This document shows positions 30,603-53,528 of a DNA stretch of 63,646 nucleotides, in pieces. Where the stretch lies: assembly GCA_028715785.1 (NCBI GenBank), contig JAQURC010000008.1, forward strand, positions 1 to 63,646, in the 5' to 3' direction. The notes below the pieces were generated by a model. It was not told the origin of the DNA and searched no databases. It saw only the letters and a list, made by a program, of their open reading frames with translations. Each line of letters opens with the position of its first letter. Position 1 is the stretch's first letter. The stretch is from Candidatus Omnitrophota bacterium. Its GTDB lineage: Bacteria; Omnitrophota; Gorgyraeia; Gygaellales; Profunditerraquicolaceae. The position numbers were made by a program, and so were the translations under genes.

Positions 30603-30675
30603 GGGCCTCTAGCTCATCCGGTAGAGCACCACACTTTTAATGTGGTTGTGCCGCGTTCGAGTCGCGGGAGGCTCA
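30603..30675 (+). tRNA. tRNA-Lys (anticodon UUU)
   Basis: Hand-folded cloverleaf. Acceptor GGGCCTC/GAGGCTC; anticodon stem CCACA/TGTGG with loop CTTTTAA; T arm CCGCG-TTCGAGT-CGCGG. CCA is not encoded. Confidence 0.9.
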
Positions 30676-30685
30676 TGAATAATTT

Positions 30686-30852
30686 GATAACCTGCGGTAT
30701 TGTTCGCGTGCGAAATTTTTCGCCGTGTGCTGCGGTTTACGACTCACTCTCGGACTGACTTACGCTGTAAGAATGTCCTCCGTTCGTCGTAATTCCTTGC
30801 ACACATTTGCCGAAAAATTTCTAATGCACGCTCCACAATACCGCAGGTTATC
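30686..30852. repeat. 167-nt long imperfect hairpin element between tRNA-Lys and tRNA-Leu
   Basis: It has 18-bp perfect terminal arms GATAACCTGCGGTATTGT and ACAATACCGCAGGTTATC. Inner pairs are GCGAAATTTTTCGCC/GCCGAAAAATTTC, TTACGAC/GTCGTAA, GGAC/GTCC and CTTAC/GTAAG. Confidence 0.85.
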
Positions 30853-30886
30853 GAAGCTATTTGTAGGTGGGAAGAGGAAAATATCC

Positions 30887-30968
30887 GGGCGGATGGCGAA
30901 ATTGGCAGACGCGATAGCCTTAGGAGCTATTGGGGCAACCCTTGGAGGTTCAAATCCTCTTCCGCCCA
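30887..30968 (+). tRNA. tRNA-Leu (anticodon UAG)
   Basis: Acceptor GGGCGGA/TCCGCCC; anticodon stem ATAGC/GCTAT with loop CTTAGGA; long variable arm; T loop TTCAAAT. Confidence 0.9.
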
Positions 30969-30979
30969 AGAAACTTGCA

Positions 30980-31012
30980 GCACCCCGCGCTTATAAGGTA
31001 TTGCGCGGGTGC
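30980..31012 (+). repeat. family D repeat, copy 2 (first hairpin only), between tRNA-Leu and tRNA-Gly
   Basis: GCACCCCGCGCTTATAAGGTATTGCGCGGGTGC is identical to the copy 1 hairpin. Confidence 0.9.
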
Positions 31013-31022
31013 GCGTTCGTAC

Positions 31023-31096
<74 letters not shown>

Positions 31097-48682: not shown

Positions 48683-50488
48683 ATGCCTGAATTAAACCTT
48701 TCCGATTATCTCTCTAAGAGCATATCCAAAGATAGTTGGAAGAATGCCGGTTTTAAAAAGCGCGCCGGAGTTTTGATCCCGTTATTCAGCGTGTATTCGA
48801 AAGATAGTTTTGGTATCGGGGACCTGAATGACTTAAAGCTTGTTGTCGATTGGGCAAAGTTGACCTCTAATTCAATTGTCCAGTTGCTGCCGATGAACGA
48901 AGTCGGAGCGTTGTTTTGCCCTTATGATGCCTTGAGTTCTTTCGCGCTTGAGCCCGCCTATATTTCTCTAAAAGATTTCCGTAAATTAAAAGATAAAAAA
49001 TTTAATCAAGTTTCAGACGACCCCGGCCATATTGATTACGCGGTAAAGGAAGAAAAGTTGCGGCTGCTCTGGGATGTTTATTTGGCGCAGGACTTAAGCC
49101 AGGCGTTGGATTTTGAAGAATTCCAGCGCAAAAATTTTTACTGGTTGGCGGATTTTGCGCTTTTTAAAGTGCTCAAAGAGCATCATCAGGGCAAGCCCTG
49201 GTATGAGTGGGAGCAGGGTTTTAAATACCGCCAGCCGGAGGCGTTAGAAGAATTCCGGCAGGATAATATCGAGAAAATAACTTTTCAGATGTGGCTGCAA
49301 TGGATCCTTTTTAAGCAGTTTAAATCCTCCAGCGCCTATGCCGCCGGGAATAATATTCTTATCAAAGGCGATTTACCGGTTTTGGTTTCCCGGGACAGCG
49401 CGGATGTCTGGAGCCATTTGGAATTTTTCAAGCTGGATTTTGCCGCAGGCGCGCCTGCGGATATGTATGCTGCCCGGGGCCAGCGCTGGGGGATGCCTAC
49501 TTATAATTGGGAAAATATCGCCAAAGACGGTTACCGTTATATCAAAGAAAAATTAAAATACGCCGCAGAGTTCTATAATATCCTGCGCATTGACCATGTC
49601 GTCGGGCTTTTCCGTATCTGGAGCATTCCTTATCATGCCCCCGAGGCCAATCAGGGGTTAAACGGCGTTTTTGATCCGCTTGATGAGCATCTTTGGAACC
49701 AGCATGGCCGCAAGATTCTAAGTATTTTAATTGAAAATACCAGGATGCTGCTTTGCGCGGAGGATTTAGGCGTAATTCCCAAATGCTGCACGGATACGTT
49801 GCTGGAATTCGGAATACCCGGAAATGATGTGCAGCGCTGGGTAAAAGATTGGAATATCCGTCATGATTTTCTCCTGCCGCAGGAGTACCGGCAGCTGGCA
49901 GTGGCGATGCTTTCGACGCATGATACCACTAATTGGAAGGCCTGGTGGCAGTATGAGGCAGGCACGGTTGATGAGGCTTTGTTTAGGCGCAAGTGCAATG
50001 ACCACAAAATTGATTTTACCAAAGTCAGCTTGAAACTTTTTGATCCGGGCCTTTCCCTGCATGGGCGCCTGCGCTGGAAGAAAGAGATTTATACTATAGA
50101 TAAACTGCTTTGGGAGCTGGGTAAACATAAGGAAGAGGTAAAGGATCTTATCGATCTTTACGAAAATACCTATGGAGAGAAAGAAAAACTTTGGAAGATA
50201 CTGGGCTGTTCCGGCGCGATGACCGAGGCTGCCAGCGACGACCTGTTGGCTAAAATAATCCAGTTTATCTTAAACTCCCGGGCAATTTTCTGTATTAATT
50301 CAATACGTGATTATTTGAGTTTAGCCGGAATATTTAAAGGCGATCCCTATCAGTATCGGGTAAATGTTCCGGGGACAATCAGCCCGAAAAACTGGTCGCT
50401 TAGGCTTCCGCTTAGCCTTGAGGAGTTGCTGGCTCATCCGCTGAATAAACAGATCCGCAAGATGATTTCTGATTCCGGGAGAATTTAA
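48683..50488 (+). CDS. malQ: 4-alpha-glucanotransferase (GH77 amylomaltase)
   Basis: Contains RAGVLIPLFSV...FGIGD, RIDHVVGLFRIW and AEDLG. Confidence 0.85.
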   Translation: MPELNLSDYLSKSISKDSWKNAGFKKRAGVLIPLFSVYSKDSFGIGDLNDLKLVVDWAKLTSNSIVQLLPMNEVGALFCPYDALSSFALEPAYISLKDFRKLKDKKFNQVSDDPGHIDYAVKEEKLRLLWDVYLAQDLSQALDFEEFQRKNFYWLADFALFKVLKEHHQGKPWYEWEQGFKYRQPEALEEFRQDNIEKITFQMWLQWILFKQFKSSSAYAAGNNILIKGDLPVLVSRDSADVWSHLEFFKLDFAAGAPADMYAARGQRWGMPTYNWENIAKDGYRYIKEKLKYAAEFYNILRIDHVVGLFRIWSIPYHAPEANQGLNGVFDPLDEHLWNQHGRKILSILIENTRMLLCAEDLGVIPKCCTDTLLEFGIPGNDVQRWVKDWNIRHDFLLPQEYRQLAVAMLSTHDTTNWKAWWQYEAGTVDEALFRRKCNDHKIDFTKVSLKLFDPGLSLHGRLRWKKEIYTIDKLLWELGKHKEEVKDLIDLYENTYGEKEKLWKILGCSGAMTEAASDDLLAKIIQFILNSRAIFCINSIRDYLSLAGIFKGDPYQYRVNVPGTISPKNWSLRLPLSLEELLAHPLNKQIRKMISDSGRI

Positions 50489-50704
50489 CAAATACGTAAT
50501 TTTTCTCGCTCAAGCCGATTTTTTAACGCCAATGATCTTTCGCATTTCGGTGGCTGCAGAACTCGCGGTTTTTGTTTTAACAAAAACCGCTCAAACAGCT
50601 TCGCCATCTCCGTTTTGTCGCTAGCGCTCCACGGAGATTCCCTCAATGCTCAAGCTCCATTGGCTAAAATCGGCATTCGCTGCGAAAAACTACGTATTTG
50701 TTAA
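50485..50704 (+). repeat. family A structured repeat, copy 2
   Basis: Terminal arms TTAACAAATACGTA and TACGTATTTGTTAA pair. Internal hairpins are GCGGTTTTTGT..ACAAAAACCGC and ATCTCCGT..ACGGAGAT. The left arm overlaps the malQ stop codon. Confidence 0.9.
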
Positions 50705-50719
50705 CTACTAAGAAAATAC

Positions 50720-51610
50720 ATGGGAACATTGCAAGGGGTAAAATATTATATTTCTAAAAGCATGGGCAAGGCGATCATGGATTACCAGATGATTGCTGAG
50801 GGCGATAAAATCGCGGTTGCTGTTTCCGGCGGCAAGGACAGCCTGACCCTGCTTAAGTTCCTAAAGGACAGGCAGAAATTCGTGCCGGTTAAATATGAAC
50901 TCTTGGCGGTCCACGTGGATATGGGGTATCCCTGCCATCACCCGAAAATCCTCGGCGAATATTTCAAAAAGATCGGGGTAGAATATCATATCGAGAAAAT
51001 AGATATATTAAAGGGCAAGAGCCGCAAGGATATATCCTGCGGCGTAGAGCATAGGAAGGATTCTTTTCCGCCACAGGAAGGGGGTGCGGGGGAGATTGTC
51101 TCCCGCGATCGGGGGGTGCTCAGCGAACGGAGTGAGCGCCGAAGGGGGGCTTGCCCCCCTAGCGGAAGAAATTTGGCAGTTACTCTTGATCCGCGAAGCC
51201 AAATTTCTTGTTTCTGGTGCTCCTGGAACCGGCGCAAGGCGCTTTTTGAGGTGACCAAACGTTTTGCCTGCACCAAGCTTGCTTTGGGCCACCATAAGGA
51301 TGATATTATCGAGACTACCCTGATGAATATGTTTTTTAACGGCGAGATCTCGTCAATGAACCCCAGGCAGGAGCTTTTTAAGGGGGCAATAACCATTATT
51401 CGTCCGCTGGCTTATGTGGATGAGGATCTAATCGTAAAGTCGGCCAAGGAGCTGGAGTTTCCGCATCATAAATGCACTTGTCCGAATTCCGTTACTTCCA
51501 AACGTACCAGGATCACCGAAATGATCAAAGAGTTGAAAAAGGATTGCCCGGATATAAAGACCAATATTTTTAGAAGCATAAAGAGGATAAGGCCGGAGTA
51601 TTTACTTTAA
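50720..51610 (+). CDS. ttcA: TtcA-like PP-loop tRNA 2-thiolation ATPase carrying a ~57-aa in-frame insertion inside its CxxC motif
   Basis: Contains the VAVSGGKDS PP-loop, LALGHHKDD and a third Cys region HHKCTCPN. The expected C-x-x-C is read as ISC[57 aa]...ISCFWC. Confidence 0.75.
   Translation: MGTLQGVKYYISKSMGKAIMDYQMIAEGDKIAVAVSGGKDSLTLLKFLKDRQKFVPVKYELLAVHVDMGYPCHHPKILGEYFKKIGVEYHIEKIDILKGKSRKDISCGVEHRKDSFPPQEGGAGEIVSRDRGVLSERSERRRGACPPSGRNLAVTLDPRSQISCFWCSWNRRKALFEVTKRFACTKLALGHHKDDIIETTLMNMFFNGEISSMNPRQELFKGAITIIRPLAYVDEDLIVKSAKELEFPHHKCTCPNSVTSKRTRITEMIKELKKDCPDIKTNIFRSIKRIRPEYLL
51041..51211 (+). repeat. structured GC-rich element inserted in frame in ttcA
   Basis: Hairpins GCGGGGGAGAttgTCTCCCGC, GGTGCTCA..TGAGCGCC, GGGGGGCttGCCCCCC and AAATTTGGC..GCCAAATTT. 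It is flanked by ATATCCTGC and ATTTCTTGT, both of which encode Ile-Ser-Cys. Confidence 0.8.
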
Positions 51611-51642
51611 GAATAGTATTTCCGGTGCTATACTGATAAATT

Positions 51643-52572
51643 ATGGAATGGTTTGCGGTTTTATTATTTTTGGTTATTGGTGTTTTGGTCATCGGGATAG
51701 TCCTTAAGATATCCTCCCAGGTCAATGAGCGCCTGAATCAGATGAACCATTCCCTGCAGGAGGCCAATAAGATTATCGGGGCAAATTTGGGCAGCGCGAC
51801 TTCGGCTTTCGGCAACGTAAGGGAACAGCTGGGAAAATTAGAGGAGACCAATAAGCAGATTATCGCTATCAGCCGTGATATTTCCAGCCTCCAGGAACTC
51901 CTGCGCGCCCCCAAATTCCGCGGCGCCATGGGGGAGAGTTTCCTGGAGAATTTACTTGCCCAGGTTTTACCCAAAGAACATTACCAGTCCCAATACCGTT
52001 TTAAAAATTCCGACACAGTTGACGCGGTTATCCGGCTTGGAGAGCGGTTAGTTCCGGTTGACGCTAAATTCAGCCTGGAGAATTTCCAGAAGATGATCGA
52101 GGCTATCGATGAACCGGCCAAAGAATCATTCCGTAAAAAATTCATCCAGGACATCAAAAACCGGATCAACGAAATCGCGGCAAAATATATTTTGCCCGAT
52201 GAAAATACTTATGATTTTGCCTTAATGTATATCCCGGCTGAAAACGTTTACTATGAAGTAATCATTAAAGAAGATATATTCGCTTACAGTATGTCCAAAA
52301 AGGTTATCCCGGTTTCTCCCAACACATTTTACGCCTATCTACAGGTAATCTGTTTAGGTTTACGCGGCTTAAAAGTTGAAGAGAACGCCAAGTTGATCCT
52401 AAAAAGCTTAAGCTCTCTTTCCATTGAAACGGATAAATTCAAAGAAGATTTCAATACTTTGGGCAGCCATCTGGTCAATGCCAATACTAAGTATAGCGAC
52501 GCGCAGAAGCGCCTGGAGAAGATATCCGAACGCCTGGTCAATATCCAGGACACCAAGCAGATTGAACATTAA
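51643..52572 (+). CDS. rmuC: DNA recombination protein RmuC (short form with N-terminal TM helix)
   Basis: Contains VDAVIRLGERLVPVDAKF and LMYIPAENVYYE, typical of the RmuC nuclease core. Confidence 0.8.
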   Translation: MEWFAVLLFLVIGVLVIGIVLKISSQVNERLNQMNHSLQEANKIIGANLGSATSAFGNVREQLGKLEETNKQIIAISRDISSLQELLRAPKFRGAMGESFLENLLAQVLPKEHYQSQYRFKNSDTVDAVIRLGERLVPVDAKFSLENFQKMIEAIDEPAKESFRKKFIQDIKNRINEIAAKYILPDENTYDFALMYIPAENVYYEVIIKEDIFAYSMSKKVIPVSPNTFYAYLQVICLGLRGLKVEENAKLILKSLSSLSIETDKFKEDFNTLGSHLVNANTKYSDAQKRLEKISERLVNIQDTKQIEH

Positions 52573-52585
52573 ATAAATTTAACCG

Positions 52586-52810
52586 ATGATCTTTAATATC
52601 CGCGTTTGCCCCCGGGCCAGCCGCAATCATATTGAACAAAAAGGCAGTGTTTTAAAGGTTCATCTGACCAGGCCTGCTTGTGACGGCCAGGCTAATGGCC
52701 AGCTGATTGATTTGCTGAGCGAGTATTTTAAAATAAAGAAATACCAGCTCAGGATTAAAAGCGGCAAAAAATCGCGCGATAAACTGGTGGAGATAGATGC
52801 CTCCTTATAA
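52586..52810 (+). CDS. DUF167 (YggU) family protein
   Basis: 74 aa, matching the pattern V.PRASRN.I......LKV.L..P..DG.AN..L...L. It lies upstream of a YfiH-like gene, as in many bacteria. Confidence 0.7.
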   Translation: MIFNIRVCPRASRNHIEQKGSVLKVHLTRPACDGQANGQLIDLLSEYFKIKKYQLRIKSGKKSRDKLVEIDASL

Positions 52811-53528
52811 CCCATTACAAAAATTCGGGTTAAATTCGGTAACCGCGGCTTTTAGCAGAAAGCAGGACGGGAATATGTCTTTATGCTATGGGGATGTCCC
52901 CGGTTCCCCGGAGAACCGTAAAAAATTTCTTGCTGCCATAGGCATCGATTACCGTGATTTGATCTGCGCTAAACAGGTGCACGGTAAAAATATTGAATAT
53001 GTAACCGAAGAAAATAAAGGCAGAGGGGCTTTGGATTACGATAGTTCTTTTACCGATACGGATGGTTTTGTTACCGACAAAAAGGGCCTGCCTATTGCGA
53101 TATTAACCGCGGACTGCCTGTCGGTTTTTATCTATGATCCGCTGCGCCCTGCGGTTGCGATCTTGCACGCGGGTTGGCGCGGCACCGAAAAGAATATCTG
53201 CGCCGAAGGTATCCGGGTGATGCGGGAGAGGTTTGGCAGCCGGCCGCAAAGTTTGCTTGCCGGGTTTGGCCCGTCGATCCGTTCCTGCTGTTTTGAAGTA
53301 GAGAAGGACTTTAAAAGTAATTTTCCCTTTGGGCTGATTGAGCGAAGCGGCCGTATTTTTATGGATATTGCTTTAATCAACCGGAGGCAATTAGCCGGCT
53401 GCGGGGTTAAAGAAGAAAATATTTTTGATCCCAAAGTTTGTACTTTCTCCGATAATGATAATTACTTTTCTTTTCGTAAAGAGGCCAAAAACGCCGGACG
53501 TTTGATTTCAGTAATTATGCTCAAATGA
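52797..53528 (+). CDS. pgeF: YfiH/PgeF family (DUF152) purine nucleoside phosphorylase / peptidoglycan editing factor
   Basis: Contains LTADCLSV, HAGWRG and CCFEV. Confidence 0.85.
   Translation: MPPYNPLQKFGLNSVTAAFSRKQDGNMSLCYGDVPGSPENRKKFLAAIGIDYRDLICAKQVHGKNIEYVTEENKGRGALDYDSSFTDTDGFVTDKKGLPIAILTADCLSVFIYDPLRPAVAILHAGWRGTEKNICAEGIRVMRERFGSRPQSLLAGFGPSIRSCCFEVEKDFKSNFPFGLIERSGRIFMDIALINRRQLAGCGVKEENIFDPKVCTFSDNDNYFSFRKEAKNAGRLISVIMLK

Follow-up and report, generated by a model that had tools for sequence, protein, structure and literature searches.

How did 57 additional codons come to lie directly beside the cysteines that ligate the iron-sulfur cluster of a tRNA thiolase, and what became of the enzyme? 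This question is raised by a ttcA-like gene of a Candidatus Omnitrophota bacterium (assembly GCA_028715785.1, contig JAQURC010000008.1), of which a whole stretch of 63,646 nucleotides (nt), hereafter called the window, was analysed. The gene is interrupted in frame by a 171-nt segment, the middle of which is homologous to non-coding repeats in other genomes. On balance, we think it probable that this segment is a decayed, immobile copy of a repeat dispersed among Omnitrophota, translated as a loop in a working TtcA enzyme. The features of the gene to which we refer are the following.

50720 to 51610, + strand: ttcA-like PP-loop tRNA thiolase gene, host of the insert, 296 amino acids (aa) (open reading frame [ORF] list, Pfam PF01171, NCBIfam NF007972)
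51032 to 51040, + strand: left Ile-Ser-Cys codons ATATCCTGC, one copy of a 9-nt imperfect direct repeat (DNA comparison)
51041 to 51211, + strand: 171-nt (57-codon) insertion (57-column alignment gap; DNA compared with the empty sites of relatives L002 and L003)
51041 to 51077, + strand: 5' flank of the insert, with a small hairpin (GGCG...CGCC around GGAAG/TTTCC), to which the full-length repeat hidden Markov model (HMM) does not align
51078 to 51167, + strand: repeat core, a divergent Clostridiales-2-like motif (nhmmer, Rfam RF02937, pair counts over 15 copies)
51086 to 51106, + strand: hairpin P2, within the core
51115 to 51140, + strand: hairpin P3 with an invariant U.G pair, within the core
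51144 to 51159, + strand: hairpin P4, GGGGGG-CUUG-CCCCCC, within the core
51166 to 51209, + strand: 3' hairpin AAGAAATTTGGC / GCCAAATTTCTT, 12 bp, found only in ttcA copies, with the right-hand Ile-Ser codons in its 3' arm
51203 to 51220, + strand: right Ile-Ser-Cys codons ATTTCTTGT (51203-51211) followed by TTC TGG TGC, giving an intact C-F-W-C (C164, C167) (alignment)

An in-frame insertion beside an intact iron-sulfur motif

Two models, Pfam PF01171 and NCBIfam NF007972 (TtcA), match the product of the gene, each in two stretches divided by the insert. Because of this split, its NF007972 score of 211.6 bits falls below the 272-bit equivalog cutoff; insert-free homologues at 95% identity carry the TtcA name in their sources, and several homologues are so named. 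A search of 5.8 billion proteins scored approximately 7,500 ttcA homologues, and the best 120 of these are nearly all from Candidatus Omnitrophota and nearly all 239 aa long, which is exactly 296 minus 57. The closest homologue listed is 95% identical and has an empty site.

When the window protein is aligned with 12 homologues, the insert site appears as a single gap, exactly 57 columns wide, that lies between ...SRKD and ISCFWCSWNRRKA. The DNA agrees with the protein alignment: the empty sites of L002 and L003 read GAT ATC TCy TGT TTC TGG, and the filled site of the window reads GAT ATA TCC TGC (162 nt) ATT TCT TGT TTC TGG, flanked by sequence 93-97% identical to the closest empty-site relative. 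The limits of the insert are ambiguous by 9 nt, so that 51032-51202 is equally possible. The left Ile-Ser-Cys codons differ from those of the nearest empty-site relative, L002 (ATCTCTTGT), at three of nine positions, with a single difference in the surrounding 78 nt.

The original prediction, which had been made from the letters of this DNA, was right about the 296-aa ORF, the SGGKDS PP-loop, the coordinates of the insert and the open frame across it, and also in noting that ATATCCTGC and ATTTCTTGT each spell Ile-Ser-Cys, with differences confined to the three third positions. It erred in placing the insert between the two cysteines of the CxxC motif, with two ligands of the [4Fe-4S] cluster parted by 57 residues. 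The order of the ORF is ...KD-ISC-(54 aa)-ISC-FWCSWNRRKALF, and the second Ile-Ser-Cys runs directly into Phe-Trp-Cys. Past the insert the protein reads I-S-C164-F-W-C167-S-W-N-R-R-K, in which the CxxC motif is unbroken and matches, column for column, the ISCFWCSWNRRKA of every 239-aa homologue. In this alignment, therefore, the insert is directly N-terminal to CxxC, with the tripeptide Ile-Ser-Cys (ISC) duplicated.

The remaining parts of the catalytic machinery are also in place. SGGKDS, the ATP-binding PP-loop, occupies residues 36-41 and is invariant in the alignment; the CxxC region aligns with PCSFCGVIRRK of 6SCY, a solved [4Fe-4S] thiolase, and the third cluster cysteine is present in K-C-T-C254-P-N, which aligns with the third-cysteine region of the same structure. 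The counterparts of C122, C125, and C222, which bind the cluster in E. coli TtcA (PMC4081106), are intact in the window. Because CxxC and the third cysteine are untouched, the enzyme is predicted to be probably still functional. Since the CxxC motif is contiguous, the dilemma that the split-ligand reading had created, of a big loop at the cluster site, an inactive enzyme or removal of the segment at the RNA level, is much weaker.

The core of the insert belongs to a dispersed repeat

An unfiltered phmmer search with the insert peptide matched two unrelated small ORFs, P0122 and P0124, that share GVLSE(R/Q)SERRRGACP(P/H)SG with it, and the 90-nt sequence recurs in the DNA of both (L005 and L006), where its position is intergenic or 5'. 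Two further matches, P0121 and P0123, are unrelated Cys-Pro-Pro repeat proteins and were rejected as copies; a word-indexed protein search with the insert peptide gave no candidates. When one genome per species was scanned for an exact 25-base pattern of the core, 13 sites were found, 12 of them in Omnitrophota (at most three per genome) and one in Clostridium aminobutyricum. The dispersed repeat was defined from loci L005-L019, and an HMM of its core, built from 14 copies with the window copy left out and searched with nhmmer, matches 51078-51167 with 79.5 bits (E = 1e-23). This independent match, together with the homologous copies elsewhere, identifies the middle of the insert as a bona fide copy of the dispersed repeat, and the earlier suggestion of a discrete, structured foreign element inserted in frame is thereby borne out.

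The ends of the insert do not belong to this repeat family. The full-length repeat HMM aligns to the window copy with 100.7 bits, only over positions 42-155 of 185, leaving positions 1-41 and 156-185 unmatched; correspondingly, 37 nt at the 5' side of the insert and approximately the last 20 nt at its 3' side are without counterpart in the family. The 5' flank lacks homology to the canonical terminal inverted repeat, and its start, GGCrTAG..GATTCT, is common only to the window insert and to that of a second ttcA gene (L001, described below). Exact gapped patterns of the ttcA-type 3' hairpin found no other copy in genome contigs. In the metagenome collection the sole match to this pattern, L004, is an unrelated AT-rich palindrome and was rejected. 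The expectation that copies would exist elsewhere was thus upheld for the core and failed for the ttcA-type ends. The 63.6-kb window holds no second copy of the insert (blastn; nhmmer), and viral contigs, phages and plasmids gave no match to the element, so that no phage or plasmid origin is seen.

The core also resembles a catalogued RNA. In a permissive Rfam search of 50950-51300 the only significant match was RF02937, the Clostridiales-2 RNA, at 51072-51149 on the + strand (38.5 bits, E = 6e-8, model positions 1-82 of 82), and the rest were chance-level microRNA or small-RNA matches. The score is below the gathering threshold of 58.6 bits, and the second hairpin is aligned with two non-canonical pairs. 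Other Omnitrophota copies score 39.6-44.8 bits, and the Clostridium copy (L018) scores 59.5 bits, above the threshold. Judged from these matches, the repeat core is a divergent relative of Clostridiales-2, which comparative genomics brought to light as an orphan motif and whose function is unknown. The Clostridium aminobutyricum DSM 2634 copy (L018:205-288, - strand) is a lone one, with a terminator-like hairpin on one side and a TTGACC...TATAAT promoter-like site on the other. The core is nearly identical across phyla.

Composition and folding add less to this picture. At 59% GC against 46% for the window the insert is indeed GC-rich, as had been pointed out, although eight other 120-nt stretches of the window are equally so. 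All four of the hairpins named in the original prediction exist, at 51086-51106, 51115-51140 (with the U.G pair), 51144-51159, and 51166-51209. Taken alone, the folding energy of the insert departs only modestly from expectation (z = -2.15, + strand; z = -3.2, - strand); the main support for its structure comes from the homologous copies elsewhere.

Anatomy of the Omnitrophota repeat family

A canonical copy is approximately 185 nt long and consists, from 5' to 3', of TA, a variable hairpin P1, AGUAAAGGGGG, P2 (GyGGGGGAGAccGUCCCCCrC), GGGGGG, P3 (GUGCUCA...UGAGCGC, with the invariant U.G pair), CGAAGG, P4 (GGGGGG-CUUG-CCCCCC), UAGCGGAAG, a long variable hairpin P5, and TA; examples are L014:5222-5405, L017:4212-4395, and L007:3053-3233 (family L007-L019). 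The outer arms of P1 and P5 form terminal inverted repeats of 20-29 nt (for example, with 24/29 or 23/27 matches), and TA adjoins the right end in 14 of 14 copies and the left end in 10 of 13. Over 15 copies, 96% of cells are paired in the proposed structure versus 42-56% with slid partners, and six pairs show compensatory changes. The core of approximately 90 nt is nearly invariant between species. An alternative proposed by RNAalifold pairs the G-run with the C-run in place of the local P4, and the invariant columns fit either arrangement.

Copies occupy short spacers between same-strand ORFs, in sense orientation, and the genes 3' of them are unrelated (LpxI, HypD, RNase PH, a glycosyltransferase, a TPR protein, and SIMPL). 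Such unrelated downstream genes exclude a dedicated riboswitch, and a reading of the family as a cis-regulator was rejected on the same ground; they fit a mobile or repetitive extragenic palindromic (REP)-like repeat. The bias to the sense strand is strong, and the invariant U.G pair suggests a constraint on the single strand (RNA). We infer from the architecture of the copies that the repeat is similar to a miniature inverted-repeat transposable element (MITE) and would have duplicated TA as it moved. Among the DNA compared there was no orthologous spacer that would give an empty site for a canonical copy, and no transposase was found. To our knowledge, this unit of approximately 185 nt has not been described before as a mobile repeat.

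Several loci show unusual arrangements of the repeat. In L016:3340-3400 and L012:1775-1815, extra hairpin-forming insertions lie inside the P4 hairpin, in L016 with GGGGCTTGCCCC duplicated, and the repeat may thus itself be a target of insertions. In L009:640-680 and L010:4725-4773 (- strand), the 3' end of another copy (..GTTGACGGAGCAGTAG) directly adjoins the 5' end of a full copy; these junctions indicate a tandem or nested arrangement. At L005:825-843 a scaffold gap of 10 N is followed by TAGCGGAAG, the 3' end of the repeat core, which is probably a second copy broken by the assembly gap. At L006:2949-3518 the called ORF P0124 crosses a canonical copy into a signal-peptide-like segment (LGSIFLLCFSFALSFAGEA), and this would be another in-frame case unless the start codon was miscalled.

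A second ttcA gene carries a related insert at the same site

One homologue from a different sample, P0011 (Logan SRR22387952, locus L001), is a protein of 264 aa, 72% identical to the window protein, and its gene is intact. It carries an insert of 25 codons (75 nt) at exactly the same site, in frame and stop-free. This insert starts with GGCaTAGGC GATTCT, to be compared with GGCGTAGAGC...GATTCT in the window, and ends with CCCCCCTAGCGGAAGAAATTTGGC...GATCCGaGAAaCCAAATTTCTTGc. Part of the canonical core (CCCCCCTAGCGGAAG) is kept and most of it lost; because this part is retained, we regard the L001 insert as derived from a window-like insert by an in-frame deletion of 96 nt.

The two inserts are alike to different degrees along their length. 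Within the 3' part common to both, identity is complete over the 24 nt that precede the loop of the 3' hairpin and the 12 nt that follow it, and the loop has a 7-nt gap and three to four substitutions. The host genes share 72% of their nucleotides overall and 43% at fourfold-degenerate sites, with a synonymous divergence (dS) of approximately 2.6. The right-hand ISC codons (ATTTCTTGy), which lie within the stem of the 3' hairpin, are the same in both carriers, while the left-hand ones are host-like. Folding of the L001 insert is not unusual (z = -0.9), and its minimum-energy fold skips the conserved hairpin, so that this folding energy lends the 3' hairpin no independent support.

The nearest relatives of the two carriers (95% and 85% identity) are insert-free. 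A second homologue search, seeded with P0011, scored approximately 7,700 proteins, and there were no further carriers around P0011 among the best 120; the best 120 of each search thus contain only these two. Import of the insert on a long recombination tract was considered and rejected, as the flanks of the window insert are 93-97% identical to the closest empty-site relative and no closer to the other carrier than is the rest of the gene, and only the 9 nt of the left ISC codons deviate.

Probable translation and tolerance of the insert

The reading frame through the insert has been kept open. The insert lengths of 171 and 75 nt and their difference of 96 nt are all multiples of three, and the window copy is open in the frame of ttcA, whereas of 42 combinations of frame and copy among canonical repeats only 3 are open. 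Between the two carriers, the shared 3' part differs by three synonymous changes (GCA/GCG, CGA/AGA, and TGT/TGC) and one non-synonymous change (AGC/AAC). The gene itself is under purifying selection: compared with its closest relative L002, its ratio of non-synonymous to synonymous divergence (dN/dS) is 0.04 at a dS of 0.56, and insert-free pairs give 0.06-0.08. Being like that of insert-free genes, this ratio gives no hint of relaxed constraint.

The insert peptide is basic (isoelectric point approximately 9, nine Arg residues) and rich in Gly, Ser, and Pro. An AlphaFold2 model of the whole protein, built from 13 sequences, is poor overall (mean predicted local distance difference test [pLDDT] 56); in it, residues 100-163 have a pLDDT of 25-32 and no secondary structure, and the insert lies between a strand at 88-93 and a helix at 158-181 that begins with CxxC. 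The linker at this place has 24 residues in 6SCY versus 12 in insert-free TtcA, and its length is therefore naturally variable. Taken together, the mRNA is most likely plainly translated, and the product would carry a disordered basic loop in a linker of variable length.

An intein was rejected, as 57 aa (25 in L001) compare with at least approximately 130 needed, the segment has no splicing motifs and ends in ..RSQ-ISC with no His-Asn, the Pfam scan shows no intein or Hint domain, and the DNA of the insert is homologous to a non-coding repeat. A known self-splicing intron or self-cleaving ribozyme was likewise rejected, since the curated intron and ribozyme models gave no match in the Rfam search of this region.

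Origin of the insert and competing explanations

Our results lead us to favour a history in which one MITE-like copy would have entered ttcA at the Ile-Ser-Cys codons that precede CxxC, shed both termini and every in-frame stop, and been kept open and in frame. Its translation would produce a disordered loop of 57 residues, rich in Arg, Ser, Gly, and Pro, between the β-strand and the helix that starts with CxxC, and the hairpins would be the repeat's own nucleic-acid structure and not a device for ttcA.

Several observations weigh against this history. The window copy is without inverted-repeat termini (its best end-to-end inverted match is 7 nt, versus 20-29 nt in canonical copies) and without TA flanks (its borders read ..CCTGC and TTCTGG), and because of this we can only infer that it entered by transposition. 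The 9-nt Ile-Ser-Cys duplication does not fit the TA flanks of the family either; it could possibly be a diverged longer target duplication, codons borne by the element, or the outcome of selection for events that rebuilt the motif. Moreover, an insert at the same site in a gene 72% identical, with the nearest relatives empty, is unexpected from one random insertion, and the complete identity of the shared parts (24/24 and 12/12 nt) stands against 43% at the fourfold-degenerate sites of the hosts. Behind this contrast there would be either recent transfer or selection acting on the nucleic acid, neither of which a passive translated loop explains. Finally, the placement of the loop in the protein is taken from the poor AlphaFold model. 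The presence of the insert at one site in two lineages requires targeted insertion, lateral transfer, or an old insertion followed by many precise losses. Such precise excision is known to occur by slippage where direct repeats flank a palindrome.

Of the alternatives, the one that survives best, although we hold it to be unlikely, is a site-specific, homing-like mini-element for the ttcA site, which would bear its own Ile-Ser-Cys codons in the 3' hairpin and would have moved between distant Omnitrophota. It would account for the identical insertion point in divergent genes with insert-free relatives on both sides, for the identity of shared element parts while neutral sites of the hosts are near saturation (dS 2.6), and for right ISC codons that are the same in both inserts and paired in a hairpin while the left ones are host-like; a conserved catalytic motif is, in addition, the classic target of homing elements. 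Against it, there are only the two carriers among the best 120 homologues of each search, no other ttcA-type ends in the genome or metagenome collections, and no endonuclease, recombinase, intron or intein feature found with the insert. The L001 copy persists despite the loss of most of its core, the flanks carry no signal of co-conversion, and recurrent precise loss between 9-nt direct repeats around a palindrome would give the same patchy distribution.

The identical stems and diverged loop of the 3' hairpin hint at selection on the nucleic acid. With low probability, the insert might be a functional nucleic-acid element, either a homing-type mini-element or a Clostridiales-2-class RNA and hairpin that acts in, or is processed from, the ttcA mRNA, its bases being translated as well. 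Compatible with such a function, and left unexplained by a neutral translated loop, are the contrast of stem and loop, the recurrence at one site, and the invariance of the core across phyla.

We also find it doubtful that the insertion has inactivated ttcA or soon will, so that the gene would be a recent pseudogene or encode a crippled, dispensable enzyme. The insert adjoins the first cluster cysteine, the additional cysteines C107 and C148 could mis-ligate iron, and the split lowers the NCBIfam TtcA score below its cutoff; furthermore, ttcA is non-essential in E. coli, where viable mutants have been used for complementation (PMC4081106). These points are countered by an intact ORF of 296 codons, by a dN/dS that betrays no relaxed selection, by the in-frame derivative that a second lineage keeps in an intact gene, and by indels between the inserts that are multiples of three.

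It is very improbable that the segment is kept out of the protein, be it by excision from the mRNA, as had been raised earlier, or by a ribosome that hops from the left to the right Ile-Ser-Cys codons. Take-off and landing codons do match (ISC/ISC; a single tRNA-Cys reads TGC and TGT) and enclose a GC element rich in hairpins, and the stems of the 3' hairpin are conserved while the loop is not. However, no stop or frame shift in the gap would force a hop, and the longest known bypass gap is approximately 50-55 nt, which 171 nt exceeds more than threefold. Excision finds no ribozyme or intron family match, and the core is elsewhere an ordinary intergenic repeat. The 171- and 75-nt versions both keep the frame and contain no stop codon, which neither bypass nor excision needs; either process would make the frame constraint unnecessary.

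Hardly any credence is left for an ordinary lineage-specific protein loop without repeat origin or for an assembly chimera: linker length does vary among PP-loop thiolases and the 171-nt form is on one contig only, but non-coding intergenic repeats of other genomes share homology with the DNA of the insert (E = 1e-23), which contradicts an ordinary loop without repeat copies, and an independent assembly from another sample has a related insert at the same site.

Relation to known elements

The decayed, translated repeat copy that we favour has its closest analogy, as had been proposed, in the Rickettsia palindromic elements (RPEs), which are likewise repeats found inside genes and translated; in R. 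felis, 85 of 728 RPEs are within ORFs (PMC1166351). Both are short, multi-copy hairpin repeats that are intergenic and in some cases in frame within ORFs, where they add a peptide to the host protein, and the in-gene copy of the window is open in the frame of a host gene under purifying selection. The Omnitrophota repeat is not itself an RPE: it has no known sequence relationship to them and belongs to a different phylum, its in-gene copies are rare in the present data (two ttcA genes at one site), and its core, which matches an Rfam RNA motif, is conserved across phyla. The ttcA copy differs further in that it is without the termini of its family and is flanked by a 9-nt duplication identical only as amino acids.

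The likeness to Clostridiales-2 extends over the whole 82-position model, which aligns with the blocks AGGGGGUGC, GGGUGCUCAG, and CGAAGGG and with two hairpins, and the Clostridium aminobutyricum copy that has the exact 25-base pattern passes the curated threshold. Unlike it, the Omnitrophota copies remain at 38-45 bits, form the second hairpin differently (GUGCUCA/UGAGCGC), and sit in a longer TA-flanked unit with inverted-repeat ends, and the window copy is inside a coding sequence.

MITEs that duplicate TA and are co-transcribed with their neighbours include the Correia elements of Neisseria and IS630-type MITEs. Canonical Omnitrophota copies are similar to them in being approximately 185 nt long and non-coding, with terminal inverted repeats adjoining TA, in short same-strand spacers; they differ in that TA duplication and mobility would follow only from their architecture and in the sense-strand bias with its invariant U.G pair, and the window copy has neither the terminal inverted repeats nor TA. 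Programmed bypass elements, such as T4 gene 60 and the mitochondrial 'byp' GC clusters of Magnusiomyces, share with the ttcA insert a GC-rich, hairpin-forming sequence within a coding region, bracketed by matching codons. In contrast to them, the ttcA gap of 171 nt is in frame, stop-free and without a hop signal, and its 75-nt relative is in frame as well.

Repeats that are inserted in frame and translated are already known, though uncommon. The present locus adds an uncultivated phylum, the Omnitrophota, and a new repeat family to the few cases of selfish hairpin repeats in frame in conserved enzymes, and, with the split-ligand reading corrected, its position beside an iron-sulfur ligand informs how much insertion such sites tolerate. 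Moreover, the orphan motif Clostridiales-2 is tied to a multi-copy TA-flanked unit in another phylum, which offers the lead that it might be the cargo or the core of a mobile repeat. Should the recurrence at one site prove to be targeted insertion, it would represent protein-free homing of a new type; such targeting is not shown by the present data.

Genomic surroundings

The neighbourhood of ttcA in the window (48683-53528) has the same gene order as the insert-free locus L003:1566-6029, comprising a GH77 glucanotransferase gene, ttcA, rmuC, a PF1765-like gene, and a Cu-oxidase_4 family gene. Upstream of ttcA in the second carrier, L001, there is instead a SAM_HAT (PF01887) gene. Two antisense ORFs of 95 and 136 aa cross the insert at 51008-51396 on the - strand of the window and have no support as genes. 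Elsewhere in the window, three tRNA genes are clustered on the + strand at 30603-31096 (Rfam: 30603-30675, 30887-30968, and 31023-31096).

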